A DNA stretch of 64,000 nucleotides from Candidatus Latescibacterota bacterium (GTDB lineage Bacteria > Latescibacterota > UBA2968 > UBA8231). Under the pieces are notes generated by a model. It did no database searches. It was not told the origin of the DNA and saw nothing but the letters and a program-made list of their open reading frames with translations. Below are positions 1-33,902 of the stretch, one piece after another. The position numbers and the translations under genes are program-made. The stretch's first letter is position 1; every line of letters starts with the position of its first letter. The stretch is taken from NCBI GenBank assembly GCA_965206595.1, contig OZ242214.1:4544001-4608000 (forward strand). Reading direction: 5' to 3'.

Positions 1-14
1 CGCTGCCGATACCC

Positions 15-827
15 ATGACAATTACGCAGTCGCTCGTGCTCGGGATCGTCCAGGGATTGACGGAATTCCTGCCGATCAGCAGCACCGCCCACCTCCTGAT
101 CGTCCCCTACTTTGTGGGATGGCAGGACCCCGGGACCGCGTTTTCCGCCGCCATTCAGCTCGGCACCCTGGCCGCGGTCTTCATCTATTTCGCCGGGGAC
201 ATAAAACGCCTGGCGTCGGCCGCCTGGGAGGGCCTGCGACGGCGCGACCTGCGCCACAGCCAGGACTCGCTGCTCGCCTGGGCGATCATCCCCGGCACCC
301 TGCCGATCGCGGTGCTGGGCCTGGGCTTTCGCGGTTTTATCGAGGACGAGGCGCGCGGTCTGTCGATCGTGGCCTCTGCGCTGATTGCGGGGGCGGTCCT
401 GCTTCTGTTTGCCGAAAAAACCGGGAAGCGCAACCGCGGTATGGAAGGCCTGCGCTTCTGGCACATCCAGTTCATCGGCGTCTGCCAGGCCCTGGCCCTG
501 ATTCCCGGAAGCTCGCGCTCCGGCGTAACCATCGCCGGGGGGATGCTCGCCGGACTCCGCCGGGAGGCGGCGGCCCGTTTCTCCTTTCTGCTCGGGCTCC
601 CCGCGATCGCCGCCAGCGGGCTGCTGCAGCTGATCGAGGTCATGCGCGGGGAGACCGGCGATCTCCTCGATCTCGCCGTCGGCATCGCCGCCGCGGGAAT
701 CAGCGGCTACCTGGCGATAGGTTTCCTGCTCCGTTTCCTCGAGCGCTACGGAACCCACGGCTTCGCCTGTTACCGACTGGCACTGGGGGCTGCGCTCCTT
801 GTGATGAATTTGGCGTGGCAGGGATGA
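15..827 (+). CDS. uppP: Undecaprenyl-diphosphatase (BacA/UppP)
   Basis: LGIVQGLTEFLPISSTAH and ALIPGSSRSGVT signature motifs; multi-TM protein. Confidence 0.95.
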   Translation: MTITQSLVLGIVQGLTEFLPISSTAHLLIVPYFVGWQDPGTAFSAAIQLGTLAAVFIYFAGDIKRLASAAWEGLRRRDLRHSQDSLLAWAIIPGTLPIAVLGLGFRGFIEDEARGLSIVASALIAGAVLLLFAEKTGKRNRGMEGLRFWHIQFIGVCQALALIPGSSRSGVTIAGGMLAGLRREAAARFSFLLGLPAIAASGLLQLIEVMRGETGDLLDLAVGIAAAGISGYLAIGFLLRFLERYGTHGFACYRLALGAALLVMNLAWQG

Positions 828-3706: not shown

Positions 3707-3737
3707 GCCGGCGACCGCCACGGGATCGCCCGGCATT

Positions 3738-16646: not shown

Positions 16647-18713
16647 GTGCAGTTCCTCAATCCCGCGGCGCTGATCGCACTGGCGGCCGCGGCAGTTCCC
16701 CTGGCCGTTCACCTGCTGCATCGCGGCAGTTCCGAGCCCCTTCCGTTTAGCAACCTCCGTTTCCTGCGCCACCTGCACCAGAGCCGGATGCGCAGCATCC
16801 GCCTGCGCCAGTGGCTGGTTCTCCTGCTGCGCACTCTCGCTGTGGCCGCACTCGTCCTCGCCTTCGCGCGTCCTGCCTTGCGCGGCGGAGAGGGGGGATG
16901 GTTCGGCCGGCCGGCCCCGGTGGCTGCGGCGATCCTGCTCGACGTCTCGTACAGCACGGGATACCGGCCGGGATCGGTGCGCAACTTCGATCGCCTGCGG
17001 TCCCAGGCGATCGACCTGCTGGAGCTGTTTACCCCCGGGGACGAGGTTGGCGTCATTCCATTCGCCTCCGAGGTGGCCCCGATCGACGGGGAGCTGCCGC
17101 AGGCGCTGCGGGAGCTTGCGGTGCGCCAGGAAGGGACCGACATCGAGGCGGCGCTGCGCGCCGCCGAGCGCCACTTCGAGGAGGCCGGCCTGCAGCGAGA
17201 GCTCTTCATCTGTTCCGATCTCGCGGTCCCGGGCTGGCTGGAGGTCACCGCCAGACGGTCCGCGGAATGGTCGCAAACCGCGATTTACACCACCGATCTC
17301 CAGCTCTCCGGCCGCGGCAATCGCTATCTCTCGGCCGTGGACGCCGGCATCTGGCTGGCCGCTCCGGGCGGCGGATGGCGGATCCGGGCGGAGGTGATCA
17401 ACGCCTCGGAAAACCACTCGGAGGAATTGAGCGCCGACCTTTTCATCGACGGGGAGAGGGTGCAACGGCGCGCGGTCGAGCTTCAACCCGGCGAGCGCTC
17501 CGAGCTGGAGTTCTCAACCACTCCCCGCCGCGACGGTTTCACGAGCGGCTACGTAGAAATCGAAGAGGATGCCTTGACGCTCGACGACAGGCGCTACTTC
17601 ACCGCCTTCATACCGCGGCATGTCCGCGTGGTGGTGGCTGGCGATCCCGGAGATCTCTACTTCCCGCAGCAGGCGCTGGCAGCCGCCGCCACTGGCGATC
17701 CCAGCCTGGAGCTCGACAGCATTTCCCCCGGTTCTCTCGGTTCCGGGGTTCTGGACGAGGCCGGGGTGCTGATCCTGTGCAACGTCTCGCGGCTCGGCAG
17801 CGAGCAGATCGGGGCCGTTCGCGATTTCGCGGCGCGGGGAGGGGGGGTCGTTGTATTTCCCGGCCCGGACGCCGACATCAGCTACCTCAACCGCCATCTC
17901 CTTTCCACCTTGATTCCGGCCTCGATCGTGAAAGCGGTCGGGCGCCCGGGGCCCGCGGGCCGGAGACCGGCTTCCTTCCTCCGGCTCGATCCCGCGGCCT
18001 CGGATGAGGTCCTGCTCGAGGGTCTGACCGAGGCTGCTGCCAGGCCTCGTTTCTTCGCCGCCTTCTCTCTGATGACCAACCCCGGCGTTTCGGCGCTGCT
18101 CTCTTTCGGGGATGGCTCCCCGGCCGCGGCCATGGCCTGGCGCCGGATGGGGCGCGTCGTCCTGTTCGCGGTCCCGCTGTCGCTCGAGTGGAGCGAGCTG
18201 CCGTCGAGCGCGCTGTTCGCCCCGTTGCTTCAGCGTCTCTGCCGGCTGCTGGGCACTCCCTCGCAGGGCGGACGCGGTTACCTGGTCGGTCAGACGGTTC
18301 GCCGCCGTCTCCTCGGGGTAGTTCCCGGCGACCGTGTCGAGGTCCGGACTCCGAGCGGCCGGCGCTACTTCCAGTCGGCCGAGGCGAACTCCGAGGGGAC
18401 CTTCTGGACCGGGCGTCCTGCCGAAGCGGGGGTGTGGCGTCTCGAAAAAGGGGGCGAGGTCGTCGACCGCTTCGCCGTCAATGTCGACACCCGCGAGTCG
18501 AATCTGGAGGAGGTCTCTCCCGGCCAGCTCGAGCGCATCTTCGGCCCGGCGCGGGTCGTGCCGCTAGCGTCGGACGCGGACCTGCGCGAACAGGTTCTTG
18601 TTCGGCGTTATGGCCGCGAACTGTGGCGGGAGTTCCTGCTCGCCGCCCTGGCGCTCCTGCTTGCGGAATCCTGGCTCGCGCGAGCGCCCCCGATCGGCAA
18701 GCCAGACGGCTGA
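16647..18713 (+). CDS. BatA-domain/vWA membrane protein
   Basis: MQFLNP..L..HL N-terminus, LLRTL..LAFARP, LLDVSYST MIDAS-like motif, C-terminal TM. Confidence 0.85.
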   Translation: MQFLNPAALIALAAAAVPLAVHLLHRGSSEPLPFSNLRFLRHLHQSRMRSIRLRQWLVLLLRTLAVAALVLAFARPALRGGEGGWFGRPAPVAAAILLDVSYSTGYRPGSVRNFDRLRSQAIDLLELFTPGDEVGVIPFASEVAPIDGELPQALRELAVRQEGTDIEAALRAAERHFEEAGLQRELFICSDLAVPGWLEVTARRSAEWSQTAIYTTDLQLSGRGNRYLSAVDAGIWLAAPGGGWRIRAEVINASENHSEELSADLFIDGERVQRRAVELQPGERSELEFSTTPRRDGFTSGYVEIEEDALTLDDRRYFTAFIPRHVRVVVAGDPGDLYFPQQALAAAATGDPSLELDSISPGSLGSGVLDEAGVLILCNVSRLGSEQIGAVRDFAARGGGVVVFPGPDADISYLNRHLLSTLIPASIVKAVGRPGPAGRRPASFLRLDPAASDEVLLEGLTEAAARPRFFAAFSLMTNPGVSALLSFGDGSPAAAMAWRRMGRVVLFAVPLSLEWSELPSSALFAPLLQRLCRLLGTPSQGGRGYLVGQTVRRRLLGVVPGDRVEVRTPSGRRYFQSAEANSEGTFWTGRPAEAGVWRLEKGGEVVDRFAVNVDTRESNLEEVSPGQLERIFGPARVVPLASDADLREQVLVRRYGRELWREFLLAALALLLAESWLARAPPIGKPDG

Positions 18714-18725
18714 GGAGGAGCCGGT

Positions 18726-19061
18726 TCAGCCGGCCTCCCGCAGCGCCTCGAAGGTGTAGATCCCGGTGTCGTGGCCGTCGGCCCAGGTGATGCGGATGCC
18801 GTAGCGGCCGACGTGCTCGAACCTCAATGCCTCGGCGGTCGCGGTCTCCGCCTCTCCCTCCAGTACCGGCAGCTCCCCGGTTGCGGACGGCTCGCTGTCC
18901 CGGCGCGCCTCCCGGCACATCGCACAGGGACAGCTGCGGCGCAGCTCGCTCAGGAGGGCCTGCGAGCTGGTTCCGTCGCTCCAGGCGATTTCCAGGTGCT
19001 CCCCTGTCAGGGTGATGGCGGTGGGTCGCGTCCTCCTCTGCCTGGCCACGGGCAGCCTCAC
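18726..19061 (-). CDS. DUF971 (GBBH-like N-terminal) protein
   Basis: WSDG, LRRSCPCAMC, VGRYGI..WADGHDTGIY. Confidence 0.88.
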   Translation of the reverse strand: MRLPVARQRRTRPTAITLTGEHLEIAWSDGTSSQALLSELRRSCPCAMCREARRDSEPSATGELPVLEGEAETATAEALRFEHVGRYGIRITWADGHDTGIYTFEALREAG

Positions 19062-20389
19062 CAGACAGGGCCGAGGGCGCGCGCAGTCAACTCGTACGGG
19101 TAGGCCCCGGTGATCTCGACTTCCGCAAAATTCCCCGGTCGCAGCTCTGTTTCGCCGGCGTCGATGCCGACGCTGCCGTCGATCTCGGGGGCGTCGCGCT
19201 GCAGGCGGCCGTTGAAATGGCCCTCTGCCTCGGCATCCCGCTCGTCGATCAGCGCGGTGTGACGGGTGCCGACGTGGCCGAGGTTGATCTCCGCGGAGAT
19301 GCGGTCCTGAAGCTCGGTCAGGCGGCGGTAGCGCTCCTCCTTCACCTCCTCGAGGACCGGCTGGTCGAGGTCCGCCCCCGCGGTTCCCTCTTCCGGCGAG
19401 TAGATGAAACAGGTCGCGTTGTCGAAGCGGCTGTCCTCGATGAATTGGAGCAGCTCCTCGAACTGGGCGTCGGTTTCGCCGGGAAAGCCGACGATGAACG
19501 ACGATCGCAGTCCAACTCCGGGCAGGCGGGTGCGCAGCTTTTCAAGCAACTCGAGGGTCTTGCGCCGGGTGGTCGCCCGCTTCATGCGCGCCAGCACCGG
19601 GTCCGAGATGTGCTGCAACGGCATGTCGATGTAGTTGCACATGACTGGCGTGGCGGCGAAAAAATCGATCAGCTCATCGCTCCAGAACGCCGGGTAGGTG
19701 TACATCAGGCGCATCCACTCGAGGCCCTCGACCGCGGCCAACTTGCGCAGCAGGGGCAGCAGCTCGAAACGGCCGTAGAGATCCTTGCCGTAGCGCACCG
19801 AGTCCTGGGAGACGAGCACCAGCTCGCGCGCACCGCCGGCGGTCAACCGCTCCGCCTCGGCCACGAGGGCTTCCACCGGCTCGCTGCGGTGTCTGCCCTT
19901 GATCAGCGGGATCGCACAGAAGGCGCACTGATGGTCGCAGCCGTCGGAGATGCGGAGATAGGCCCAGTGGCGGGGGGTCGTCTGCAGCCGCGGGGCGCTG
20001 TCGATGTAGCGCTCTCGCGCCCGCCCGAGCAAGCGGTCGACGTAGCGGGCGATCTCCTTCTCCTGGCTGAGTGTCAGGATCTCGTCCGCTTCCTCGGCGA
20101 GTTCCCTGCGCAAATCAGGGCGGTAACGCTCGGCGAGGCAGCCGGTGACGATGACCCCCTTGCAGACCCCGGTCTCCCTGAGCTCGTGAGCTGCGAGGAT
20201 GGCATCTATCGACTCCTCCTTGGCGGGGCCGATGAACCCGCAGGTGTTGACGATGACGACATCGGCAACCTGCGGGTCGGAGGTCGTTTCGTAGCCGTTG
20301 CCGTCGAGCAGTCCCAGCATGCGTTCGGAATCGACGGTGTTCTTGGGACACCCGAGGCTGACGAGGTGGATTTTGGCTCTGGCGGTCAT
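19058..20389 (-). CDS. rimO: Ribosomal protein S12 methylthiotransferase
   Basis: SLGCPKNTVDSE, VNTCGFI, CDHQCAFC radical-SAM motif, APEIDG TRAM domain. Confidence 0.95.
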   Translation of the reverse strand: MTARAKIHLVSLGCPKNTVDSERMLGLLDGNGYETTSDPQVADVVIVNTCGFIGPAKEESIDAILAAHELRETGVCKGVIVTGCLAERYRPDLRRELAEEADEILTLSQEKEIARYVDRLLGRARERYIDSAPRLQTTPRHWAYLRISDGCDHQCAFCAIPLIKGRHRSEPVEALVAEAERLTAGGARELVLVSQDSVRYGKDLYGRFELLPLLRKLAAVEGLEWMRLMYTYPAFWSDELIDFFAATPVMCNYIDMPLQHISDPVLARMKRATTRRKTLELLEKLRTRLPGVGLRSSFIVGFPGETDAQFEELLQFIEDSRFDNATCFIYSPEEGTAGADLDQPVLEEVKEERYRRLTELQDRISAEINLGHVGTRHTALIDERDAEAEGHFNGRLQRDAPEIDGSVGIDAGETELRPGNFAEVEITGAYPYELTARALGPVW

Positions 20390-20399
20390 GTCGTTGTAA

Positions 20400-21500
20400 T
20401 CAGGGATACACCTCCTGAATGTACTCGACCCCGGCGCTTGCCACTCCCTCGTCGACGTCCTCGACCAGGCTCACCTCGCCGATGCGGCGGCCGAGAACGA
20501 AGCGCAGCCTGCCGTCGCGGCGCTTCTTGTCGGCATGGGTGCGGTCGACGATGCTCGCGGCTGGGACCTGACTGATTCCGGGCGGCACTCCCAGGCGCTC
20601 GAGCAGCGCGTCCTGGCGCCGCTGCTCCGCTGTCGACCAGGTGCCGAGCAGCGTGGCGATCTGTCCGGCCGCGGCCATGCCGAGAATCACGGCCTCGCCG
20701 TGACTGTACCCCTGGTAGCCGGTCGCCGCTTCGATCGCGTGGCCGATGGTGTGGCCGTAGTTGAGAATGGCACGCAGGCCGCCCTCCTTCTCGTCGCCCG
20801 AGACCACGGAAGCCTTGATGGCGGCGTTGCGGGCAATCAGCCAGTCGAGTTCCCCTGAATCGATCTCCAGGGCGACGACTTTTTCGATGTTTCGTTCGAG
20901 ATACTCGAAGAGCTCGGCGTCGCGAATGACCGCGTGCTTGACGACCTCCGACATTCCGGCGACGCGATCGGAAACCGGCAGGGTTCGCAGGGTGGAGGTG
21001 TCGGCCAGCACCAGTCGCGGCTGGTGGAAGGCGCCGATCGTGTTCTTGCCGAGTGCGTGATTGACCGCGGTTTTTCCCCCGATGCTGGCGTCGACCTGGG
21101 CGACGATCGTCGTCGGCACCTGCACGAAGTCGACGCCGCGCAGAAAGGTCGCCGCGACAAAGCCCGCGAGATCGCCGGCGACGCCGCCCCCGAGGGCGGC
21201 GATCCAGCAGCCGCGGTCCATGCGCGCTTCGATCAGCTGCCCGAAGATGCGCTCCGCAGCAGCGAGGTTTTTCTCCGAGTCGCCGCCGGGGAAGAGGATT
21301 TCGGTCACTCGAAAGCCGGCGCCGCGCAGACTCTCCGAAAGAATTGGAACGCAACTGTCCGCAAGGGCGGTGTCGGCGATCACCGCGGCGCGGTTGCCGA
21401 GGCCGAGTTCCCCGCAGCGCCGCCCGATCTCCGGGAGGATGCCGCTGCCGACCACGACCTCGTAGCCGCGTTCCCCCAGCTCGACGGTTACGGACGGCAT
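20400..21500 (-). CDS. aroB: 3-dehydroquinate synthase
   Basis: LGGGVAGDLAGF, QVPTT, DASIGGKT, LNYGHTIGHAIE, HGEAV. Confidence 0.95.
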   Translation of the reverse strand: MPSVTVELGERGYEVVVGSGILPEIGRRCGELGLGNRAAVIADTALADSCVPILSESLRGAGFRVTEILFPGGDSEKNLAAAERIFGQLIEARMDRGCWIAALGGGVAGDLAGFVAATFLRGVDFVQVPTTIVAQVDASIGGKTAVNHALGKNTIGAFHQPRLVLADTSTLRTLPVSDRVAGMSEVVKHAVIRDAELFEYLERNIEKVVALEIDSGELDWLIARNAAIKASVVSGDEKEGGLRAILNYGHTIGHAIEAATGYQGYSHGEAVILGMAAAGQIATLLGTWSTAEQRRQDALLERLGVPPGISQVPAASIVDRTHADKKRRDGRLRFVLGRRIGEVSLVEDVDEGVASAGVEYIQEVYP

Positions 21501-22027
21501 GGCGGCTTCCGCTCGAGAAATCGGTGAATTTCCTCCGCGGCCTCTTCGGGGGTCCGTTCCCGGCACGACTGCACCGTCATGTCGGCGGCGGCGTAGAAAG
21601 GGGCCCGCTCGATCAGCATGCGCACGATTCTTTCCCGTTTCTGCTCCATGGTCAGCCCGGCGAGCAAGGGGCGGGTCTCCTTGCGGCCGACCCGCTCTAG
21701 TATCGTGTCAGCGTCCGCTTGAAGACAGACGAGAAGGCCCGGCGATTCGCGAATGGCGTCGCGGTTGCGCTCCTGGGTGATGGCGCCGCCGCCGAGGGCG
21801 ACGACGACATCGCGGCGCGAAGCGACCTCGACTACGCAGGCGTGCTCGATATTCCGGAACCAGTCCTCCCCTTTTTCCGCAAAAATTTCCGCGATCGCCA
21901 TGCCGGCGCGCTCCTCCGCCATGTCGTCGGTATCGATGAACCAGCGTCCCATGCGCCGGGCGAGCAGGCGTCCCACCTTGCTCTTGCCGGTCGCCATGAA
22001 ACCGGTGAGGAAAACCGGGCCGTTCAC
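21488..22027 (-). CDS. aroK: Shikimate kinase
   Basis: GFMATGKS P-loop, FIDTD, LGGG, RPLL; start uncertain (GTG 22027 or 22036). Confidence 0.92.
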   Translation of the reverse strand: MNGPVFLTGFMATGKSKVGRLLARRMGRWFIDTDDMAEERAGMAIAEIFAEKGEDWFRNIEHACVVEVASRRDVVVALGGGAITQERNRDAIRESPGLLVCLQADADTILERVGRKETRPLLAGLTMEQKRERIVRMLIERAPFYAAADMTVQSCRERTPEEAAEEIHRFLERKPPCRP

Positions 22028-22181
22028 GGGTAGCACCGGCTCCCCGCCGGCAGAAGCCGGGCTCGCGCATGGTACCACCGGGGCGTACTGGGAAAGACAC
22101 TGTCTTGTGAGCCGAAGCCGTGCCCGAACGGCTTCTCCCGCCGCCTGCAAACGCCGATGGTCAGCTGCGCCAAGCCCATTT

Positions 22182-23885
22182 TCACATCTCCTCCGGGGCT
22201 TTCATTCCGACCAGCTCCAGCCCCGTGCGCAGCACCGCGCGCACTGCGTCGACCAGCCTGATCCGCGCCTCGGCCAGCTCGGGGTCGCCGGGTACCAGCA
22301 CCTGAAGTTCGTTGTACATCTTGTTGGCGACCGCGGCCAATTCGAGCAGATAGGTGGTGATACAGGAAGGTTCGTCCTCGTCCGCGGCCTGTGCTACCTG
22401 TGCGGGAAACTCTGCGAGCTTTCGGGCGACTCGCATCTCGGCCTGTTCCCCCAGTCTGGCCGCGTCGCCGCGGTCCGGCGGTTTGCCGAATCGCCGCAGG
22501 ATGCTGCAGAAGCGCGCATGAGTGTACTGCAGGTAAGGCCCGGTCTCGCCGTCAAAGTTGAGGACCTCCTCCAGGGAAAAGCTCACGTCGCGAGTGCGCC
22601 GGTTGCTGACGTCGGCGAACACCACAGCCCCTATGCCCACCTGCCGCGCGACTTCTTCCCTGCCGGCGAGCTGCGGGTTCTTCTCGGAGATGATGCCCCG
22701 GGCAAGCTCGACGGCGCGCCCGAGCACGTCTTCGAGCAACAGCGCGTTCCCCTTGCGGGTTCCCATCGCTTCCCCTTTGAAGGAGAGCAACCCGAAGGGG
22801 GCGTGCACGCAGCGGCTGATCCAGTCGGCGCCGACCCGTTCCAGGGAGCCGAAAACCTGGCGGAAGTGCAGCTGCTGCCGGATGTCGGTGACGTATACCA
22901 TCTTGTCGAACCGGTAGCGCTCCCAGCGGTAGCGCAGGGCGGCCAGATCGCGGCTGTGGTAGGTGCTCGTACCGGCGCTGGTTCGCAGCATGCAGGGGGG
23001 AATGTCCTCTCCGAGGCGGACGATCAGCGCCCCCTCGCTCTCTTCGGCGAGCCCCTTTTCCGCGAAGAAGGCGATCGTCTCGTCGAGCCGGTCGGCGAAG
23101 TGGCTCTCGCCGAGGTAGTCGTCGAACTCCACTTCGAGAATGCGGTACATGCGCTCCGCTTCGCGGCGCCCTTCCTCTACGAAGTACCGCCACAGGGAGA
23201 CCATCTTCTCGTCGCCGGCGGCTAGGCGGACGAGTCGTGCCCGAGCTTCCTGGGCGAGCTCGGGATGGCTTTTCACCTCTTCGTTGAAGCGCACGTACAG
23301 GTTGGACAGCTCCGCCACCGGGTTGATTCTGACCTTGCCGGGATCGGCCCACAAGGTGTAGGCGGCGAGGAGCTGCCCGAAGTTGGCGCCGTAGTCGCCG
23401 TAGTAGTTGATGCCGACGCATTTCCATCCGAGGAAGGCGTGGATGCGGCGGATGGCGTTGCCGATTGCGGTCGAGCGCAGGTGCTGGATGCCGAACGGCT
23501 TGGCGAGATTCGGAGCGCCGAAGTCGATGGCGAGGGTCTTGCCCCGCCCCTGATTCCCGGACCCGAAGCAGTCCCCCGTGGCGGCGATTTCCTCGAGGGT
23601 GTGGCGAATGAAGGCGGTGCGGTTCAGCCTGAAGTTGACGTATCCCCCGGCTGCCTCGACGCCGTCGATCCGGTCGCTTGCGGTGCCGCTGAGCCGGGAG
23701 GCCACCTCGCCGGCGATCTGGGCAGGGTTCCGGCGCAGCTGCTTGGCCAGCGTGAAGCAGGGGAGCGCGTAGTCCCCCATTTCCTCCGCCGGCGGTACGG
23801 AAAGCAGTTCCCGCAAGGTCTCGGAGTCGACGCCGGTCGCCGACGCGGCACCTTCAAGTATTTCCTCTACGAACGGATTGGTCAC
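22182..23885 (-). CDS. argS: Arginine--tRNA ligase
   Basis: GDYALPCF, PNLAKPFGIQHLRST (HIGH variant), MGTRKG, GETGPYLQYTHAR, C-terminal APEEM. Confidence 0.95.
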   Translation of the reverse strand: MTNPFVEEILEGAASATGVDSETLRELLSVPPAEEMGDYALPCFTLAKQLRRNPAQIAGEVASRLSGTASDRIDGVEAAGGYVNFRLNRTAFIRHTLEEIAATGDCFGSGNQGRGKTLAIDFGAPNLAKPFGIQHLRSTAIGNAIRRIHAFLGWKCVGINYYGDYGANFGQLLAAYTLWADPGKVRINPVAELSNLYVRFNEEVKSHPELAQEARARLVRLAAGDEKMVSLWRYFVEEGRREAERMYRILEVEFDDYLGESHFADRLDETIAFFAEKGLAEESEGALIVRLGEDIPPCMLRTSAGTSTYHSRDLAALRYRWERYRFDKMVYVTDIRQQLHFRQVFGSLERVGADWISRCVHAPFGLLSFKGEAMGTRKGNALLLEDVLGRAVELARGIISEKNPQLAGREEVARQVGIGAVVFADVSNRRTRDVSFSLEEVLNFDGETGPYLQYTHARFCSILRRFGKPPDRGDAARLGEQAEMRVARKLAEFPAQVAQAADEDEPSCITTYLLELAAVANKMYNELQVLVPGDPELAEARIRLVDAVRAVLRTGLELVGMKAPEEM

Positions 23886-24733
23886 GGTTCCACCTGGCCG
23901 AGCAGGGCCTGTTTCATTTCCTCCACCGGCGCGGCCACACCGGTCCAGATCTCGAAGGCGCGCGCTCCCTGGTGAACGAGCATTCCGAGCCCGTCGACGG
24001 TGCGCGCCCCGGCCTTTTCGGCCTGGGCCAGCAGGCGCGTGTGCCGCGGCTTGTAGACGATGTCGAGGACTGTGAGGCGGTCGTGCAATACCGACGGATC
24101 GGGTAGCGGGGAAGCATCCGGCCGCGGATGCATTCCGACCGAAGTCGCGTTTATCAGCAGGCCCGCTTCGCCCATGGCGCCCCCCCCGCCAAGAGTTCCG
24201 ACGCGCACGCGGCGGGCCTCCGGGTCGAGATCGGCAGCCAGGGCATCGGCTTTTTCCGCGGTGCGGTTGAGGAGCAGGACATCTTCTACTTCTTCGGCCT
24301 GCAGCAAGGCGTAGAGGATTGCCCGGGCGGCGCCCCCTGCCCCGAGCAGCACCACCGCCGCCGGCAGGGAATCGAGTCCGCCGTCGGCGCAGAGGCTGGC
24401 GATGACGCCTTCCGCATCGGTGTTGTACCCGGTCAGGCGCCCATCCTTGTTGGCGATCGTGTTCACCGCCCCGATGGCCCGGGCTTCTTCCGAGATCTCG
24501 TCCAGTCCCTCCATCACCGCCACCTTGTGCGGCACCGTTACGTTCAGGCCGCGGATGCCGAGCGTCCGCATAGCCACCGGAACCTCGGCGACGCGGTCCG
24601 GGGGGACGGCGAACGGCAGGTAGGCGAAATCGAGTTCCGTCCTGGCGAGCGCGGCGTTGTGCATCGCCGGAGAGAAGCTGTGCTCGACGGGGTACCCGAT
24701 CACCCCGAGCAGGCCGGTTCTCGAGGTGATCAA
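23882..24733 (-). CDS. aroE: Shikimate dehydrogenase
   Basis: HSFSPAMHN, GLNVTVPHK, GAVNT, NTD, GAGGAA, GMLVHQG. Confidence 0.95.
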   Translation of the reverse strand: MITSRTGLLGVIGYPVEHSFSPAMHNAALARTELDFAYLPFAVPPDRVAEVPVAMRTLGIRGLNVTVPHKVAVMEGLDEISEEARAIGAVNTIANKDGRLTGYNTDAEGVIASLCADGGLDSLPAAVVLLGAGGAARAILYALLQAEEVEDVLLLNRTAEKADALAADLDPEARRVRVGTLGGGGAMGEAGLLINATSVGMHPRPDASPLPDPSVLHDRLTVLDIVYKPRHTRLLAQAEKAGARTVDGLGMLVHQGARAFEIWTGVAAPVEEMKQALLGQVEP

Positions 24734-24870
24734 CCGAGGAGATCCTCGATGAACTGGTCGGCTATCTCCAGACTCTCGCTCCAGCTCGCACCGTAGAGGA
24801 GCTTGATAAACAACACGCCGCCTCCGAACAGCAGGGCGAGCAGCGCGAACAAGCGTATGAACCCACTCAT
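24730..24870 (-). CDS. 46-aa single-TM small protein (not in ORF track)
   Basis: MSGFIRLFALLALLFGGGVLFIKLLYGASWSESLEIADQFIEDLLG; RBS AAAGGAGAGG; ATGA overlap with aroA' stop and TTGA overlap with aroE start. Confidence 0.8.
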   Translation of the reverse strand: MSGFIRLFALLALLFGGGVLFIKLLYGASWSESLEIADQFIEDLLG

Positions 24871-26153
24871 GTCACCTCTCCTTTCTTGTCCTGCAAAGCC
24901 TGCAACAGATCGCAGAAGCCGGGAAAAATCTCTTGCAGACAGCCGCTGTCTGCGAGAACCATCTCCCCTTCGGCGAGCAGTCCCGCAACCGCGAACGCCA
25001 TCGCGAGTCCGGAATTGTTCCTGCAGTCGATCTCCCCCCCTGTCAGGGGCCTGCCCCCTTCTATGACGATCCCCTCGGGATACTCCCCGACTTTCGCCCC
25101 GATTCTGCGCAGAGCGGAAACCAGGTGAGCGACCAGATCGTGGCTCCCCTGCCGCAGGGGGGCGATGTCACGAATGATGAATTCACCCTCCACCTGGGTC
25201 GCCAGCACCGCCAGCATCGCCATCTGATCGAGGAGGCGTTCGCTGCGCCCCCCGGCGACGCGAGTTCCCTTGAGCCTGGCGGCCCCGACAACGAGGTCCG
25301 CCGCACCGTCTTCCCGCTCTTCGACCGCGGCCTCGCCGCCGATCTGCCTGAGAAGGTCGAGGAACGGGCGCTGTGGCGAGCGCAGCTCGACGTTGCGGAT
25401 GCGGACCTTCGAGCCCTTCAGACTCGAAGCGGCGACAACAAGCGGCAACGCCAACCGCAGCTCACCCGGCACGGAGACCCGAACTGCCCGCAGGTGCGTT
25501 CCCCCCTCCACGGCAATCGCGCGCGCGCCCTCCCGCCGGCTCCGTGAAATTCCGCCGCAGCGGCGATCCAACAGCTCGTCGACGCGGTCCCTGGAGGAAG
25601 GCGGTTCCCTGACCTCGGTGGCGCCCTTTCCGTACAGGCCGGCGATCAGCAGCGCCAGCTTCACCGGTGCCTCGAGGTCGGTCTCGGGATGTGAAGCCCC
25701 CTTCATGCCGTCGCCGCGGTCGAAGGCGACTACATCGCCGGCTGCGAGACGGCCTGCCGCTCCCATTCTGCCGAGGAGCTCGAGGAGCCGGGTGCAGGAC
25801 TCCTGCTGAGCCGCGGGAATCCGGGCCCGAAAGGGAATGCCCTGCCCGGCGAGCACGGCCAGCGCCGGCAGAGCCGTTGCTCCGGTGTCGGTGAGATCGA
25901 CGATGCCTTCAACGCGGCGCAGGGCATGCGGGCCTGCCCCTCGAATCGCCAGGGTGGAGTTTTCCCGCCTGGTTTCGATGCCCGCCCTGTGCAGCCAGGA
26001 GACCAGGCGCTCCGAGCCCGGAGGGAGGTTGTCGACTTCCGAGTCCCCCTCGGCAACTGCGGCCAGCAGCAGAGCCAGGGCGGCTCCGTCCCGGTCGCCC
26101 GGGACGCGCGCCTCCCCCTCGAGCCTGTGCGCTGCGGCTACTCGCTGCCGCAT
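24867..26153 (-). CDS. EPSP synthase (AroA)-fold protein, catalytic motifs degenerate
   Basis: Colinear with class II AroA (VPGD, VK..LLIAGL, SRD, VPG, LAMAFAVAGL, FPGF) but key residues replaced. Confidence 0.85.
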   Translation of the reverse strand: MRQRVAAAHRLEGEARVPGDRDGAALALLLAAVAEGDSEVDNLPPGSERLVSWLHRAGIETRRENSTLAIRGAGPHALRRVEGIVDLTDTGATALPALAVLAGQGIPFRARIPAAQQESCTRLLELLGRMGAAGRLAAGDVVAFDRGDGMKGASHPETDLEAPVKLALLIAGLYGKGATEVREPPSSRDRVDELLDRRCGGISRSRREGARAIAVEGGTHLRAVRVSVPGELRLALPLVVAASSLKGSKVRIRNVELRSPQRPFLDLLRQIGGEAAVEEREDGAADLVVGAARLKGTRVAGGRSERLLDQMAMLAVLATQVEGEFIIRDIAPLRQGSHDLVAHLVSALRRIGAKVGEYPEGIVIEGGRPLTGGEIDCRNNSGLAMAFAVAGLLAEGEMVLADSGCLQEIFPGFCDLLQALQDKKGEVT

Positions 26154-26181
26154 CTGTCAATCGGTTGGCGGGAAATGCGGA

Positions 26182-27312
26182 TCACGGCAATCGAGCCTGG
26201 TAGCCGAGGGAGTTGAGCACCACCAGCGACTGCTCGGCTGCCTCGGGGCTGTCGAACCCCAGGCGGATGGTGCCGCCTTCACCCTCGCGCACCTTCATCA
26301 CCTCGATGTCGTTGATGTTGAGATTCTCCGCGGCCAGACCGCCGGCAATTTCGGCAATCACTCCCGGTTTGTCCTCGGCGACGACGAGAATCTCGTGCAG
26401 GCGGTGCAGAAACCCCTTGGCGTCGCGCGGGATCGAGGCCCGCATTTCATTGGCGAAATCGAAATCCCGTTGCAGGCTCTCGTCCCCAACGCGTTCCCGG
26501 ACATCGCGCAGCATGGCCGAGAAACGGTCGATCAGCTCGCGAATGCTGTCGGCGTTGGTCCTGCATATGTCCTCCCACACAGGGGCGAAGGGACTGGAGG
26601 CGATGCGCGTCAGGTCGCGGAAACCTCCCGCTGCCAGCGGCAGATACAGGCCTCCTTCTTCCTCGTCCATGCGTCCCACCATCTCGACGAGCGAGGTCGC
26701 CAGCATCTGCGGCAAGTGCGAAATCGCCGCGACCACGCGGTCGTGCATCTCGGCGGACAACTCGACGACCCTGGCACCAATGCGCCCCAGCAGCAGCTGC
26801 AGGTCGGCATAGAGCCGTTCCGGGACGCGCTCATCCGGTATCAGGATGTAGATCGCATTCTGAAAAAGGAACGGATCGGCGGCGCGGACTCCCGATCGTT
26901 CGGAGCCTGCCATCGGGTGTCCGCCTATGAAGTATGCCTTCTCTCTGCCTGCGGCGCGCGCGGTTTGCGCGATCACCCGCTTGGTGCTGCCTACATCCGT
27001 TATCAGGGCATTTTCGCGGGCGAGGCGCATCACCTCGGGGAGGAGTTCCACGATGCGCCGGATCGGAGTGCAGAGCAGGACCAGATCGGCATCAGCGATC
27101 CCCCTGTCGAGCTCTTCGTAGGAATACCCTTCGTCGAGCACTCCCAGATCGAGGGCCTTGGCGATGGTCTCGTTGCGGCTGATGCCGACAACGCGCGTCG
27201 AGGGGGCGGCCTGCCTGACTGCGAGTCCAAGGGAACCGCCGATCAGGCCGACGCCGACTATGGCGATACGCTCGAAGACGTCAGCTCTCCTCGCGTCCTG
27301 GCTGCGGGCCAT
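26182..27312 (-). CDS. tyrA: Prephenate/arogenate dehydrogenase with C-terminal ACT domain
   Basis: GVGLIGGS, TDVGSTK, GGHPMAGSE, HD...SHLPQ, GFRDLTRIA, EDKPGVIA ACT. Confidence 0.93.
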   Translation of the reverse strand: MARSQDARRADVFERIAIVGVGLIGGSLGLAVRQAAPSTRVVGISRNETIAKALDLGVLDEGYSYEELDRGIADADLVLLCTPIRRIVELLPEVMRLARENALITDVGSTKRVIAQTARAAGREKAYFIGGHPMAGSERSGVRAADPFLFQNAIYILIPDERVPERLYADLQLLLGRIGARVVELSAEMHDRVVAAISHLPQMLATSLVEMVGRMDEEEGGLYLPLAAGGFRDLTRIASSPFAPVWEDICRTNADSIRELIDRFSAMLRDVRERVGDESLQRDFDFANEMRASIPRDAKGFLHRLHEILVVAEDKPGVIAEIAGGLAAENLNINDIEVMKVREGEGGTIRLGFDSPEAAEQSLVVLNSLGYQARLP

Positions 27313-27324
27313 TCGACATTCCGG

Positions 27325-27582
27325 TCACTGCTGTTCGAGGTCGCGAGCTGCGGCGATAATGCGCGTGAAAACGTCGACCAATGCCCTGTCTCCCAGGGGG
27401 CCCTGGTTGTACTCCCGCAGCCGTTGCAACAGGTCGCGTTCCCGTTGCGGGTCGCGGACCTCCAACCCTTCCGCGCGCTTGATCTTCCCGATCTCCACGG
27501 CGTACTCGAGCCGCTTGTTGATAAGATCGACCAGCTCTTCGTCGACCTCGTCGATGCGGGCACGCCACTCACTGAGGTCCAT
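27325..27582 (-). CDS. Chorismate mutase (AroQ, type II)
   Basis: WRARIDEVD..LVDLINKR, IGKIK, RDPQRE. Confidence 0.9.
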   Translation of the reverse strand: MDLSEWRARIDEVDEELVDLINKRLEYAVEIGKIKRAEGLEVRDPQRERDLLQRLREYNQGPLGDRALVDVFTRIIAAARDLEQQ

Positions 27583-27634
27583 TCGCAACTGCGCTCCTGT
27601 TCGGGACACCCCGTTTCCCGGCCGCGATCCCGGA

Positions 27635-28621
27635 CTAGCGAAAACCCATGACCGAGCGCACGCGATCCATCGTCCGCTCGACGACAGGGCCTGCCTTTCC
27701 CGCCCCCTGTTCCAGGATCCCGTCCAGGTAGTGCGGATCTGCGGTAATCTCGCGGTACTTCTCCTGCAGCGGTGCCAGCGACTCGGTCACGAGGTCGGCG
27801 AGCTCCCCCTTGAGGTCTCCGTACCCCTTGCCCTGGAACCGGGCTTCGATCTCCTCCTCGCTGCGTCCGGAAAGGGCCTGGTATATCGTCAGCAGGTTGA
27901 AGAGCCCGGGGCGCTGGGGATTGAAGACGATATCCCGCTCCGAGTCGGTGACCGCCCGCGCCAACTTCTTGCGTATAACCTTGGGGGCGTCGAGGAGGCC
28001 TATTGCGTGATTCCTGCCCGTTTCGGATTTCGACATCTTCCTGGTGGGGTCGTCCAGTCCCATTACGCGCGCCCCGACGGGCCGAATCAGCGGCTCGGGT
28101 ACGGTGAACACCTTTCCGAAGCGATTGTTGAAGCGATTGGCGATGTCGCGGGCGAGCTCGACGTGCTGCTTCTGGTCCTCCCCGACGGGGACCGCGTCAG
28201 CCTGGTAGATGAGGATGTCGGCAGCCATGAGCACGGGGTAGGCGAAGAGTCCGGTGCCGGTCGCCTCGTCGCGGCCTCCGGCCTTGTCCTTGAACTGCGT
28301 CATCCGCTGCAGCCAGCCCATCGGCGTCACGCAGGTGAGAAGCCAGGTGAGCTCGGTGTGTTCGGGGACGTGCGACTGCACGAAAAGGACGCTACGCTCC
28401 GGGTCGATGCCGGCAGCCAGGAGAACGGCGGCCATCATCCGGGTGTTCGCCCTGAGCTCTTCGGGATCGTAGTCGACGGTGATGGCGTGCTGATCGACGA
28501 TACAGAAGTAGTTCTCGTACTTCTCCTGGTCGGTTACCCAGTGAGCGATGGCACCGATGAGGTTGCCGATGTGGGGCTCGCCGCTCGGCTGGATGCCGGA
28601 AAGGACTCTTTTGCTTGCCAC
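27635..28621 (-). CDS. trpS: Tryptophan--tRNA ligase
   Basis: SGIQPSG, HIGN, YPVLMAADIL, VPVGEDQ, KMSKS. Confidence 0.96.
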   Translation of the reverse strand: MASKRVLSGIQPSGEPHIGNLIGAIAHWVTDQEKYENYFCIVDQHAITVDYDPEELRANTRMMAAVLLAAGIDPERSVLFVQSHVPEHTELTWLLTCVTPMGWLQRMTQFKDKAGGRDEATGTGLFAYPVLMAADILIYQADAVPVGEDQKQHVELARDIANRFNNRFGKVFTVPEPLIRPVGARVMGLDDPTRKMSKSETGRNHAIGLLDAPKVIRKKLARAVTDSERDIVFNPQRPGLFNLLTIYQALSGRSEEEIEARFQGKGYGDLKGELADLVTESLAPLQEKYREITADPHYLDGILEQGAGKAGPVVERTMDRVRSVMGFR

Positions 28622-28629
28622 CTCGATTC

Positions 28630-29424
<795 letters not shown>

Positions 29425-29581
29425 GTTTCCTGGAACAATCCCGACAACCCCGCCGGGCGCCTTGTCCCCGAAACGGGTTGCCGAAGTTCGACCGCGGGGT
29501 CGCCCGGCTCGCAAGGAACCTGAGCGGGTCGCGGCGGGGTCGTACTGCGGGCGAATGGCCGGAAATGGATGAGACGGAACA

Positions 29582-30589
29582 CTAGGAGTTGCTGATTTCG
29601 ACGAGCTTTTCGAGCGCGGCGAGGGCCGCGCCGGAGGCGATGCTCTCCTCGGCCACGGGGGTCCCGGAAGGCAGATCCTCCGCAAGGTCTCCGGCGGCAA
29701 CGGCCGCTGCGGCGTTCATCACGACGACGTCCTTGGCCGGCCCCGGCTTGCCTTCGAGCACGGACCGCAGAATGGCGGCGTTGTCGGCAGCCGTCCCCCC
29801 CAGGAGATCGGCGGCTGTCGTCGTCTCGAAGCCAAAACAGCCCGGGGCGACCTCGAAGGTTCTCAGGACTCCGTTTTTCAGCTCGGTGACCTGCGAAGGC
29901 CCGGTCGACGTGATCTCGTCGAGGCCGTCGCTGCCGTGAACCACGTAGGCGCGCTCGGAACCCAGCATCTGCAGCACTCCGGCCAACTTCTCGGTGAGGC
30001 TGGCGTCGAAAACGCCGAGCAGCTGCCGCCTGGCCCCGGCGGGATTGGTCAGGGGTCCGAGGATGTTGAACACGGTGCGGGTGCCGATCTCCCTGCGAGG
30101 GCCGATGGCGTGCTTCATCGCCCCGTGCAACAACGGGGCGAAAAGAAAGCCGATGCCCGCTTCATCGAGACACTCGGCGACCTTCTCAGGGCCGGCCTCG
30201 ATGTTGACCCCCAGCTCCAGCAGCACATCGGCGGAGCCGCACCTGCTCGACATTGCCCGGTTTCCGTGCTTGGCAACGCAGAGCCCGGCGCCGGCGGCGA
30301 CGAAGGCGACCGCTGTAGAGATGTTGAAGGTCCCCGAACCGTCCCCTCCGGTGCCGCAGGTGTCGATCTTCGTTCCCCTGCCGCCGCCGATGCGCGTCGC
30401 CTTCTCCCGCATCACCTCGGCGAAGCCCGCCACCTCGGTCACGGTCTCGCCCTTGCAGCGCAGGGCGATCAGGAAGGCTCCTATCTGGGCGTCGGTCGCC
30501 TGACCGCTCATGATCTGGTCCATCGCCCCGCGGGCGCTATCGCGGTCGAAATCCACCCCGTCGAGCAGCTGTTGAATTACGGTCTGCAT
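29582..30589 (-). CDS. trpD: Anthranilate phosphoribosyltransferase
   Basis: DTCGTGGDG, FNIST, KHGNR, GSAD, GPLTNP, DGLDE. Confidence 0.96.
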   Translation of the reverse strand: MQTVIQQLLDGVDFDRDSARGAMDQIMSGQATDAQIGAFLIALRCKGETVTEVAGFAEVMREKATRIGGGRGTKIDTCGTGGDGSGTFNISTAVAFVAAGAGLCVAKHGNRAMSSRCGSADVLLELGVNIEAGPEKVAECLDEAGIGFLFAPLLHGAMKHAIGPRREIGTRTVFNILGPLTNPAGARRQLLGVFDASLTEKLAGVLQMLGSERAYVVHGSDGLDEITSTGPSQVTELKNGVLRTFEVAPGCFGFETTTAADLLGGTAADNAAILRSVLEGKPGPAKDVVVMNAAAAVAAGDLAEDLPSGTPVAEESIASGAALAALEKLVEISNS

Positions 30590-30620
30590 CGCTCGCGCCC
30601 TTTCTCCTGGTCGGTGAGGG

Positions 30621-31170
30621 TCAGTTCTGGTTGAGAAAATTGGCGAGCAGCCGCTTACCGGCCCCGGTCAGGATGGATTCGGGGTGGAATTGGACTCCCT
30701 GAACCGGGAAGTCGCGGTGGCGGATGCCCATGATGACGCCGTCGCCGGTTTCGGCCACTACCTCAAGGCAGTCGGGCAGGGTCTCGCGCTCGACGACGAG
30801 CGAGTGGTAACGCGTAGCGGTGAAGGGGTTGGGCAAGGCGGCGAAGAGGCGCTGACCGTCGTGGTGGATTTCCGACGTCTTTCCGTGCATGATGCAGGGC
30901 GCGCGCAGGACGATACCGCCGAAGGCCTGGCCGATCGCCTGGTGCCCGAGACAGACGCCGAGCAGGGGTATTTTTGGGCCGAGTCGAATCGCCAGTTCCA
31001 TCGAGATGCCCGCCTCGTTCGGCGTACAGGGGCCAGGCGAGATGACGATCTTCTCAGGCTGGAGAGCGGCCACTTCATCGACGCTGATCTTGTCGTTCCG
31101 GTGCACCTGCAACTCGGCGCCGAGCTCTCCCAGGTACTGAACGAGATTGTATGTAAAGGAATCGTAGTTA

Positions 31171-31187
<17 letters not shown>
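30621..31187 (-). CDS. trpG: Anthranilate synthase component II (glutamine amidotransferase)
   Basis: [33 protein letters not shown]. Confidence 0.94.
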
Positions 31188-32757
<1,570 letters not shown>

Positions 32758-32838
32758 CGAAGTGCTCTTCAGGTGGCTTTGGCTTCGGTTTTTTTGTGTA
32801 ACGGCTCTGCTGCCCGGCTGCTCAGGTCGGGGTCCGGC

Positions 32839-32871
32839 AAAAAAAAACCGCGGACGCTGATGCGTCCGCGG
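32839..32871 (-). terminator. Intrinsic terminator of the trp attenuator
   Basis: On the minus strand: CCGCGGACGC-ATCA-GCGTCCGCGG (perfect 10-bp stem) followed by T9. Confidence 0.93.
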
Positions 32872-32893
32872 CGACTCTTCGATATTTGTTGTG

Positions 32894-33004
32894 TCAGGCC
32901 CCGGCGGGCCATCTGGTGGACGCATCCATTTCGCGCTTGTGATATCGGAACCGCCACCAGTAGCGGCGGCCTGCGATCAAACCTGCGTCCATGAGTCTCG
33001 TCAT
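32894..33004 (-). CDS. trpL: trp leader peptide
   Basis: MTRLMDAGLIAGRRYWWRFRYHKREMDASTRWPAGA (alternative start ATG 32992); tandem Trp codons immediately upstream of the terminator. Confidence 0.88.
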   Translation of the reverse strand: MTRLMDAGLIAGRRYWWRFRYHKREMDASTRWPAGA

Positions 33005-33025
33005 TTCGTCACCTGCAACGGAGGT

Positions 33026-33054
33026 ATTCTAGGCCGCCGTTTTGAAACTGTCAA
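33026..33054 (-). promoter_or_regulatory. Sigma70 promoter of the trp/aro operon
   Basis: TTGACA (33054-33049), 17-nt spacer, TAGAAT (33031-33026). Confidence 0.85.
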
Positions 33055-33082
33055 CAGCCTGGCCGGCCATTCCGGCTTGCGC

Positions 33083-33871
33083 CTATTGCTCTTCGTCGCC
33101 GACCGAAACGGTCTCGATCTCGAGATCCTCGCGAAGTGCGATGCGGTCGACCTGACCGTCGGAGATCCAGACGACGCGGTCCGATACGCTGAGCATCTTG
33201 TGATCGTGGGTCGCCGAAATCACGGTAACTCCCGATGTCTGGTTCATGGAGCGCAGCAGCTCGATGATTTCGGTGCCGGTACGGAGATCGAGGTTGGCTG
33301 TCGGCTCGTCGGCGAGCACGACGGCCGGATCGTTGGCCAGGGCGCGGGCGACGGCGACGCGCTGCTGCTGGCCGCCGGAGAGCTCGAAGGGTTTGTGCGA
33401 ATGCCGGTCTCCCAGGCCCACCTTGCCGAGAAGGTCCATGCCCTTGTCGCGGGATTCGTCGCTGGTGAGGCCGGCGAAGACCATGGGAAGAGTCACGTTT
33501 TCGAGCGCCGTCATCACCGGAATCAGGTTGAAGGACTGAAAGATGTAGCCGATCTTGCGGCAGCGCAGCCAAGCGAGCTCATATGCGTCGAGTTGGGCGA
33601 CGTCCACTTCGTCGATGTAAACCTTGCCTTCCGACGGCTTGTCGAGTCCGCCGACCATGTTGAAGAGAGTGCTCTTTCCGGAACCGGAGGGCCCCATGAT
33701 GGACATGTACTCGCCGGAGTAGATCTCGAGATCCACCCCCCGCAAGGCGTGCACCTCCGTCGCCCCCATCTGGTACATCTTCTTGACCTTCTGAGTGCGC
33801 ACGACGGTGCGCTTCTCTTCGGCGGTCGTCACGCCTGCGTCGACAGCTGCCAGGGTATCTTCGCTTGCCAT
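33083..33871 (-). CDS. ABC transporter ATP-binding protein (LolD/MacB-like)
   Basis: GPSGSGKST, LSGGQQQRV, LADEPT, ATHD. Confidence 0.93.
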   Translation of the reverse strand: MASEDTLAAVDAGVTTAEEKRTVVRTQKVKKMYQMGATEVHALRGVDLEIYSGEYMSIMGPSGSGKSTLFNMVGGLDKPSEGKVYIDEVDVAQLDAYELAWLRCRKIGYIFQSFNLIPVMTALENVTLPMVFAGLTSDESRDKGMDLLGKVGLGDRHSHKPFELSGGQQQRVAVARALANDPAVVLADEPTANLDLRTGTEIIELLRSMNQTSGVTVISATHDHKMLSVSDRVVWISDGQVDRIALREDLEIETVSVGDEEQ

Positions 33872-33902
33872 GAATAGTCTCGTCGGTGATAGGCGGAGAG
33901 GC

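Follow-up and report, generated by a model that had tools for sequence, protein, structure and literature searches.

A degenerate EPSP synthase paralogue in the aroA slot of a Latescibacterota aromatic supraoperon

The stretch of DNA analysed here, 64,000 nucleotides (nt) from the genome of a Candidatus Latescibacterota bacterium (positions 4544001-4608000 of contig OZ242214.1; the window), carries on its minus strand a supraoperon with the gene order trpE, trpG, trpD, trpC, trpS, tyrA, pAroA, an open reading frame (ORF) of 46 amino acids (aa), aroE, argS, aroK and aroB. Our subject is pAroA, a degenerate paralogue of 5-enolpyruvylshikimate-3-phosphate (EPSP) synthase that sits in the aroA slot of this gene string; all coordinates are those of the window unless stated otherwise. 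EPSP synthase is among the best-studied bacterial enzymes, is the target of glyphosate and is usually seen as a stand-alone monomer with a single job.

Fold and active site of pAroA

The pAroA gene (24867..26153, minus strand) encodes 428 aa plus a stop and has no internal stop codon, as a preliminary description of the window, made from the letters alone, had said of an intact ORF of AroA fold at these coordinates. The Pfam family EPSP_synthase (PF00275) matches the protein with 139 bits (gathering cut-off 22.8; E 2.4e-40) from residue 7 to residue 416, that is, over positions 3-416 of the 417 in the profile, which is far beyond chance and makes pAroA a full-length member of the family. The protein nevertheless fell short of the cut-offs of the two narrower families, scoring 154.5 bits against the 287.25 required by the aroA equivalog TIGR01356 and 51.3 bits against the 392.7 required by TIGR01072 (MurA); its best NCBIfam match was the AroA half of PRK14806/NF011381 (170.4 bits over profile positions 305-724; cut-off 902). 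AlphaFold2, supplied with an alignment of 84 homologues, returned a model with a predicted local distance difference test score (pLDDT) of 93.4 and a predicted template-modelling score (pTM) of 0.90, and a Foldseek search with this model gave AroA structures as all of its top matches, led by that of Coxiella (E ~1e-39; template-modelling score up to 0.83). By phmmer, Coxiella burnetii AroA (3tr1) matched pAroA with an E value of 4.9e-51 at ~30% identity, and the closest solved relatives were all of class II (Coxiella, B. halodurans, S. pneumoniae and CP4). Comparison with the Pfam profile and with solved structures, which the preliminary description had proposed, therefore gave a full-length family match and a class II enzyme as the nearest structure, and the model indicates that the two-lobe, inside-out alpha/beta barrel is complete.

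The residues K22, R27, R100, R124, S169, Q171, D313, K340, E341, R344, H385 and R386 are those that we take to bind shikimate-3-phosphate (S3P) or phosphoenolpyruvate (PEP), or to act in catalysis, in E. coli AroA. Aligned with the E. coli K-12 protein from NC_000913.3, which supplies the E. coli numbering used throughout, pAroA has replaced all of the sites on the lobe 2 side (K22 by R21, R27 by L26, R100 by L95, R124 by S119, S169 by E161 and Q171 by P163) and all but one of those in the C-terminal part (K340 by G336, E341 by S337, R344 by L340, H385 by S381 and R386 by G382), D313 alone being retained, as D309. The motifs tell the same story in the HMMER alignment to Coxiella AroA 3tr1, where GDKSISHR reads GDRDGAAL, GNSGT reads TDTGA, SAQVKS reads EAPVKL, SRDHTE reads SRDRVD, GDISSA reads GELRLA, IDEF reads LDQM, LRVKETDR reads LRQGSHDL and DDHRIAM reads NNSGLAM; every motif substitution listed in the preliminary description could be seen in this alignment. 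Of the class II markers, PGDKSISHR, GNSGT..R, RPM, SAQVKS, LRVKETDR and DHR are all degenerate. The description had also named the Asp of the ID-E motif as the only survivor; that Asp does persist, as D309, and other residues of the old motifs persist with it, namely R328-D329 (the class II 'RD'), K165 and R188-D189. By every sequence criterion pAroA is non-catalytic, as had been proposed, and on this evidence it cannot bind S3P and PEP in the manner of an EPSP synthase.

The degeneration extends to the homologues of pAroA. Among 5.8 billion proteins searched, 445 matched at E <=1e-10; we took the best 120 (39-92% identity), and residues were counted in the 119 proteins of at least 400 aa among pAroA and these best 120 of 445 (2 of the 121 were short fragments and were dropped). 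K22, R100, Q171, K340 and H385 were each retained in none of the 119 full-length proteins and R386 in one, and no protein kept more than four of the 12 canonical residues. D309 was retained in 83 of 119, and R328-D329 was invariant. At the old sites the relatives differ among themselves, with L, R, V or A at position 21, H, Y, L, R or F at position 340 and P, A or S at position 381, and they carry L, V, A or Q at the K22 site, where pAroA has a conservative R. The preliminary description had spoken of a targeted loss of the active site; the variation suggests that the old site positions are merely unconstrained.

A scan of 185,579 species genomes yielded 80 representative loci that we scored for three test motifs. 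Fifty-two of the 80 lacked all three, and all of these were at least 38% identical to pAroA; 26 were fully canonical, all at no more than 35% identity, and 2 were intermediate. The titles of the degenerate-locus records are mostly Candidatus Latescibacterota, with some Gemmatimonadetes. Under public names, dead full-length and one-lobe forms (the latter described below) appear as '3-phosphoshikimate 1-carboxyvinyltransferase' in several sources, and others are 'hypothetical protein' at NCBI. With dead copies labelled in this way, pathway reconstructions may pick the wrong gene as aroA, and the same mislabelling may upset forecasts of how sensitive these uncultured bacteria are to glyphosate.

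A second aroA, and the ancestry and retention of the slot gene

The preliminary description had suggested searching the genome for a second, canonical aroA, and one is present. The window's genome (7.05 Mb in a single contig, C1) has three PF00275 matches, at 602805 (murA), 1290057 (aroA) and 4568906 (pAroA) in genome coordinates, the last being the only one inside 4544001-4608000, so that the window indeed holds no catalytic aroA. The murA at C1:602805 scores 442 bits against TIGR01072. The canonical aroA at C1:1290057-1291304 scores 360.6 bits against TIGR01356, above the cut-off of 287.25, lies 3.3 Mb from pAroA and retains K22, R27, Q171, D313, K340, E341, R344, H385 and R386; it is flanked by ORFs that by eye are epimerase-like and enolase-superfamily-like, away from the aromatic pathway genes. 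This second, class-I-like aroA presumably makes EPSP in the organism. An aroA above the TIGR01356 cut-off is also found outside the slot in 36 of 41 relatives; of the five relatives without one, three show fragments where contigs end, the match is split in a fourth, and the fifth (G007, 90% complete) shows none.

The second aroA of the window's genome (L001, 1477-2781) is itself unusual. In place of PGSKS..NR, the motif that we take as the class-I-like marker of aroA genes outside the slot, it has PSSKNYTTRY, and its end branch in our tree is 1.64 long, with a TIGR01356 score of 360 bits. Genomes G003, G015 and G018, of the same family, and the other families of the class have a more ordinary type of aroA (413-469 bits). 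The 'replacement' aroA may have been replaced again in its turn, or may have diverged fast.

These data bear on whether pAroA could be a working EPSP synthase that makes do with non-canonical residues. Its complete fold and its correct position in the operon are what such an enzyme would have, and R21 in place of K22 is a conservative change in pAroA itself. Against it stand the replacement of eleven binding or catalytic positions by residues that vary among orthologues, the score below the equivalog cut-off, the canonical aroA elsewhere in the genome, and the existence of orthologues that are missing a whole lobe, in which an active site would be impossible. We find a working enzyme barely credible.

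The origin of the slot gene is visible in families of other classes of the same phylum. In families f5, f6, f7, f9, f11 and f12 we inspected the best match to the dead-copy profile at one locus each, and in all six the slot gene carries every canonical class II motif (PGDKSISHRA, GNSGT..R, RPM, SAQVKS, SRDHTERM, PGDISSA, LIDEIP, LRKKETDRI and DHRIAMAF; individual sequences deviate slightly). The site residues replaced in pAroA are kept both by these slot enzymes and by the aroA genes that lie outside the slot. The canonical slot gene adjoins aroE in four of the six loci, and tyrA is on the locus in two, the other contigs being too short. In five of five genomes from five of these families (four of them the same genomes as the slot loci, the fifth a congener) no TIGR01356 match other than the canonical slot gene passes the cut-off. 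Locus L069 (G050), whose slot aroA is canonical, has an insertion of about 1.5 kb between tyrA and that aroA, two genes that are ~210 nt or less apart in nearly all other full-length loci scanned.

In a maximum-likelihood tree of 30 rows (quick search, MurA outgroup), a single clade unites the canonical with the dead slot genes (Shimodaira-Hasegawa-like approximate likelihood ratio test, SH-aLRT, 97), apart from the clade of aroA genes found elsewhere in the genomes (95), and the dead slot genes fall on one side of a branch with an SH-aLRT of 86, on long stems. Together with the canonical slot loci, this indicates that pAroA descends from class II-type enzymes, and the tree fits, with moderate support, a single loss of catalysis. 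The simplest history would have three steps: an ancestral operon had a working class II aroA in the tyrA-aroA-aroE slot, the genome then gained a class-I-like aroA at another place, and the operon copy would have lost its active site after that. A very divergent degenerate slot gene in family f10, of another class of the phylum (L077, G055; 3455-4141 of that locus, in a 449-aa frame between tyrA and aroE) stands out in the tree, with an end branch of 3.28, and its class carries its own canonical aroA elsewhere (L078, L079); because the branch is so long, a second, independent loss of catalysis in f10 is possible.

Dead as it appears to be as an enzyme, pAroA has been kept. A profile match is present in 72 of 75 genomes of the window's family, the three misses being 58%, 73% and 86% complete, and the ORF is intact among homologues down to 38% identity. 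Five apparent pseudogenes, flagged for stops inside the match, did not hold up: in G151, G145 and G050 the stops were the natural stop codons, overrun by the match, and in G010 and G023 no internal stop was found with a profile query. Pairwise Nei-Gojobori ratios of nonsynonymous to synonymous divergence (dN/dS) among three genomes of the window's genus were 0.22-0.28 for pAroA, compared with 0.13-0.18 for TyrA, 0.15-0.28 for AroE and 0.15-0.28 for the N-terminal part of ArgS, and both lobes of pAroA are constrained (0.16-0.42). The order tyrA-pAroA-aroE-argS is kept in 20 of 20 loci of the same GTDB family, 19 of them besides that of the window's genome. pAroA is under purifying selection and is not a decaying pseudogene. 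Retention by selection in place of decay had been proposed in the preliminary description, together with dN/dS and synteny of orthologues as a test, and these figures agree with it; the pattern that it had named as the mark of ordinary decay, a canonical gene in close relatives with a dN/dS near 1, is not what we see, canonical copies occurring in distant relatives and dN/dS lying far below 1.

That pAroA might be an ordinary pseudogene, slowly decaying since the second aroA displaced it, is very improbable given these selection data, which already contradict it. A second aroA is there, the slot gene evolves faster than its neighbours, and truncations and one loss are known in related lineages, all of which decay would produce. 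What decay would not produce is an ORF that remains intact in 72 of 75 family genomes and across such divergent homologues, with dN/dS well below 1 and confident AlphaFold2 models.

One-lobe forms and operon neighbours

The two lobes of pAroA have had different fates. Lobe 1 consists of an N-terminal strand (residues 1-20; 26094..26153, minus strand), which ends in the first of two VPGD-type repeats, and a main body (residues 232-428; 24867..25460, minus strand), which is the best conserved part of the protein and contains the former K340, E341, R344, H385 and R386 sites; lobe 2 (residues 21-231; 25461..26093, minus strand) lies between them and contains the former K22, R27, R100, R124, S169 and Q171 sites. 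Within the main body of lobe 1, R262, T297, R298, R303, T319, Q320, G323, R328 and D329 are invariant. Mean pairwise identity among the dead copies (84 family members) is 0.55 in lobe 1 and 0.41 in lobe 2, compared with 0.63 and 0.59 among the canonical slot enzymes, as measured with lobe 2 boundaries at 26-235.

In sister lineages lobe 2 is gone altogether. Within the class of the window's genome, the slot gene is full-length and dead in the window's family, in most of f4 and in part of f2; it encodes a mini form of 214-224 aa in genus g19 of f2 and in f3, and ~150-174 aa in G077 (f4). The 216-aa mini form corresponds to pAroA residues 1-20 joined to 232-428, keeping the N-terminal strand and deleting lobe 2, and its junction coincides with the pair of internal VPG(D/E) repeats, at pAroA residues 17-20 and 228-231; a deletion between these repeats would excise lobe 2 exactly. 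Modelled alone by AlphaFold2, the mini form reaches a pLDDT of 93.5, and the model superposes on one lobe of Coxiella AroA by VIA alignment (Z 28.7, rmsd 2.3 Å, 212 of 216 residues, chain 2..428). On these models, the one-lobe orthologues have no cleft. Most mini forms keep the equivalents of E341, R344 and D384, which are lost in the window's family. The locus offers a natural series, from canonical enzyme through full-length dead copy and one-lobe remnant to loss, in a fixed gene neighbourhood, which makes it well suited to studying why dead enzymes are retained.

These observations leave little room for the ligand sensor that the preliminary description had listed among possible functions, or for a new enzyme. 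On such a reading pAroA would have been neofunctionalised, its cleft or an exposed face of lobe 1 binding some other small molecule, whether as a sensor or with new chemistry. The two-lobe fold and its hinge are preserved at high model confidence, some residues of the cleft survive (83 of 119 homologues have D309, and all have R328-D329), and most mini forms have the E341, R344 and D384 equivalents, as a binding protein might. The former ligand positions 21, 340 and 381 vary among relatives, however; there is no polar residue that is conserved in all dead forms and differs from the canonical ancestors; the sister lineages lack lobe 2 and hence the cleft; and the residues kept in mini forms are those lost in the window's family, so that there is no common site. 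Since no conserved residue set is unique to the dead forms, nothing points to a new active site or ligand site, and a sensor or enzyme using the cleft looks decidedly unlikely. One candidate for a novel motif, T297-R298 with R303, was set aside: a basic residue is present there in five of the six canonical slot enzymes, and R303 is family-specific.

The neighbours of pAroA are tightly packed. Upstream lie trpE, trpG, trpD, trpC and trpS (27635..32925, minus strand; Pfam Chorismate_bind/Anth_synt_I_N, GATase, Glycos_transf_3, IGPS and tRNA-synt_1b) and tyrA, which encodes a prephenate dehydrogenase with a C-terminal ACT domain (26182..27312, minus strand; PDH_N, PDH_C and ACT). Downstream, also on the minus strand, follow the 46-aa micro-ORF (24730..24870), aroE for shikimate dehydrogenase (23882..24733; Shikimate_dh_N and SDH_C), argS for arginyl-tRNA synthetase (22182..23885; identified by Pfam and by synteny in a conserved gene string), aroK for shikimate kinase (21488..22150; SKI) and aroB for 3-dehydroquinate synthase (20400..21566; DHQ_synthase and DHQS_C). 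Two aminoacyl-tRNA synthetase genes are therefore lodged inside the aromatic supraoperon, argS (22182-23885) between aroE and aroK and trpS (27635-28621) between trpC and tyrA, and the position of argS is kept across the family. An Rfam scan of 18000-34000 found no leader or riboswitch near pAroA; a DicF hit at 32768-32815 (21.5 bits against a threshold of 48) was sub-threshold and was treated as chance.

The tyrA stop codon lies 28 nt upstream of the pAroA start. In family f1 loci the gap between tyrA and the slot gene ranges from -1 to 211 nt, and many loci have a gap that does not exceed 3 nt. Long frames, open over 656-837 aa, had suggested a TyrA-pAroA fusion, but the tyrA stop precedes the slot gene in every locus checked, so the two are not a single polypeptide; such frames are usual in GC-rich DNA. 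A co-fold of TyrA with pAroA, run without controls, gave a score of 0.00 and a mark of 0.32, which speaks neither for nor against binding. On the other side, the pAroA stop overlaps the ATG of the micro-ORF (ATGA), and the micro-ORF's TGA overlaps the TTG start of aroE (TTGA), overlaps that are seen in most family loci. A single membrane helix is predicted in the micro-ORF product, whose C-terminal end carries a conserved SWxESxEIADQFxEDLL motif. It matched no family in Pfam or NCBIfam, and the closest cluster in the ESM Atlas (score 0.90) is an unnamed hypothetical protein, likewise of 46 aa. In a phylum-wide scan the micro-ORF turned up in 57 of 59 loci, two of them with a canonical aroA in the slot; L070 and L072 lack it.

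This close packing supplies the main rival to any protein-level role, namely that pAroA is an operon relic whose ORF stays open only to carry translation into the coupled micro-ORF and aroE, the constraint on its sequence reflecting no more than a harmless, foldable by-product. The stop-start overlaps from pAroA to aroE in most family loci and the tight tyrA-pAroA junctions would follow from such coupling; stepwise shrinkage has kept the 5' and 3' ends, the gene has been lost outright in one genome (G087), and no new conserved residues have arisen. The constraint is nevertheless stronger than we would expect a spacer to show, the full-length form resembling the housekeeping neighbours (dN/dS 0.22-0.28) and the mini form resembling TyrA (0.10, at a near-saturated dS). 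With 78-384 nt between the micro-ORF and aroE in g19, moreover, coupling is broken there, and the mini form is still conserved; and the excision left exactly one self-folding lobe. We think a relic unlikely, though likelier than any other alternative.

A proposed non-catalytic role for lobe 1

The reading that we favour, and that we hold to be reasonably probable, is that pAroA is a selected pseudoenzyme, derived from the operon's original class II aroA and kept for a non-catalytic partner role that resides in lobe 1. It has lost its catalytic residues, retained its fold, come under purifying selection and been kept over the long term, as pseudoenzymes are. The job would be one inherited from the ancestral enzyme, seated mainly in lobe 1 and dispensable in some backgrounds, and it might take the form of a stoichiometric structural or regulatory partner of TyrA, of the 46-aa membrane peptide or of AroE. 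Because the tight or overlapping junctions with tyrA, the micro-ORF and aroE fit synthesis in fixed proportions, a partner role is the likeliest form of such a job, and a role serving the neighbouring proteins is our best guess.

Several observations weigh against this pseudoenzyme reading. Both the inactivity of pAroA and the activity of the other aroA are inferred from their sequences. A polar residue conserved across all dead forms and unlike the canonical ancestors was looked for and not found; the conserved residues of the dead forms (R262, R269, K/R295, R/K298, G323-E324, R328-D329, R349 and the PEG/PDG turn) are instead inherited and common to the canonical slot enzymes. Across the family pAroA is 40-50% identical, compared with 58-70% for TyrA and AroE, and so evolves faster. 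The mini form's dN/dS of 0.10, next to 0.09 for TyrA, comes from two g19 species with dS near saturation (pS, the proportion of synonymous differences, 0.60-0.63). The slot gene has been shortened repeatedly in sister lineages. It is absent in G087, where ~270 nt separate tyrA from the micro-ORF and the aroE behind it (the profile matches in 14 of the genus's 15 genomes), and in G048, of another family, tyrA abuts aroE with no slot gene between; the shortening and these absences imply that the role is not universally required. Finally, the occurrence of the micro-ORF is not tied to that of the slot gene; it stays in G087, for example.

The preliminary description had also called the protein repurposed, and this goes further than the evidence: the conserved residues are ancestral, one whole lobe is deleted in sister lineages and the gene has been dropped in one genome. 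Ancestral residues, lobe deletion and that loss make it likelier that the role is old, secondary, borne by lobe 1 and dispensable in some backgrounds. A dead copy kept in its original slot, and reducible to a lobe as constrained as TyrA, suggests that the EPSP synthase fold has a second use.

A broader version of the pseudoenzyme reading, which we put forward tentatively as a possibility well short of an even chance, is that a single EPSP synthase lobe, made up of the N-terminal strand and the C-terminal half, is a module that stands on its own and can be selected, with a non-catalytic function that is linked to tyrosine or shikimate enzymes and is older than the loss of catalysis. Bacterial EPSP synthase would then moonlight in an assembly built around TyrA, as one of its subunits or as its regulator, and the conserved 46-aa membrane peptide might be the anchor. 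If true, this would explain why the same remnant is found beside TyrA in Latescibacterota and in Pseudomonas syringae after a foreign aroA took over.

Comparison with known systems

Literature searches on EPSP synthase pseudoenzymes and on the shikimate genes of Latescibacterota and Gemmatimonadota returned no account of the pAroA family or of a bacterial EPSP synthase pseudoenzyme. A preprint on EPSP synthase classification (10.1101/2020.05.27.118265) has, in the part of its text available to us, an 'unclassified' bin and no mention of non-functional copies; the supplementary tables of that work might list such sequences as 'unclassified'. What is new here is the set of canonical ancestors in the slot, the self-folding one-lobe forms with a constraint like that of TyrA, the repeat junction and one genome without the gene.

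With class II AroA (Coxiella 3roi/3slh/3tr1 and Agrobacterium CP4 2gg4), pAroA shares the two-lobe fold and a colinear sequence; unlike those enzymes it has lost eleven site residues, scores below the TIGR01356 cut-off and coexists with a separate canonical aroA. The bifunctional prephenate dehydrogenase/EPSP synthase PRK14806/NF011381 has the same order, tyrA and then aroA, whereas in the window the two are unfused and the AroA counterpart has degenerated as a catalyst. Pseudoenzymes in general resemble pAroA in being homologous to an enzyme, in having lost catalytic residues and in keeping their fold under purifying selection.

The nearest printed precedent that we found is the truncated TyrA-AroF fusion of P. 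syringae. According to passages of Song et al. (2005, BMC Biol 3:13, PMC1173090), ~200 residues of the AroF domain were deleted from this fusion after the gain of a stand-alone aroF, which was probably acquired laterally, and the authors suggest there that the AroF remnant may serve as a regulatory domain; the deletion is placed at the N-terminal side in two of these passages and at the C-terminal side in one. As those passages tell it, the parallel is that an EPSP synthase beside TyrA loses catalysis once a stand-alone aroA has taken over and that a remnant persists, and the one-lobe forms of the sister families, compared with it by description, are the same kind of remnant as the P. syringae AroF domain. 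pAroA itself differs from that case, as described, in being a separate polypeptide, full length and ancient, and in being spread over several families where the P. syringae remnant belongs to one species.

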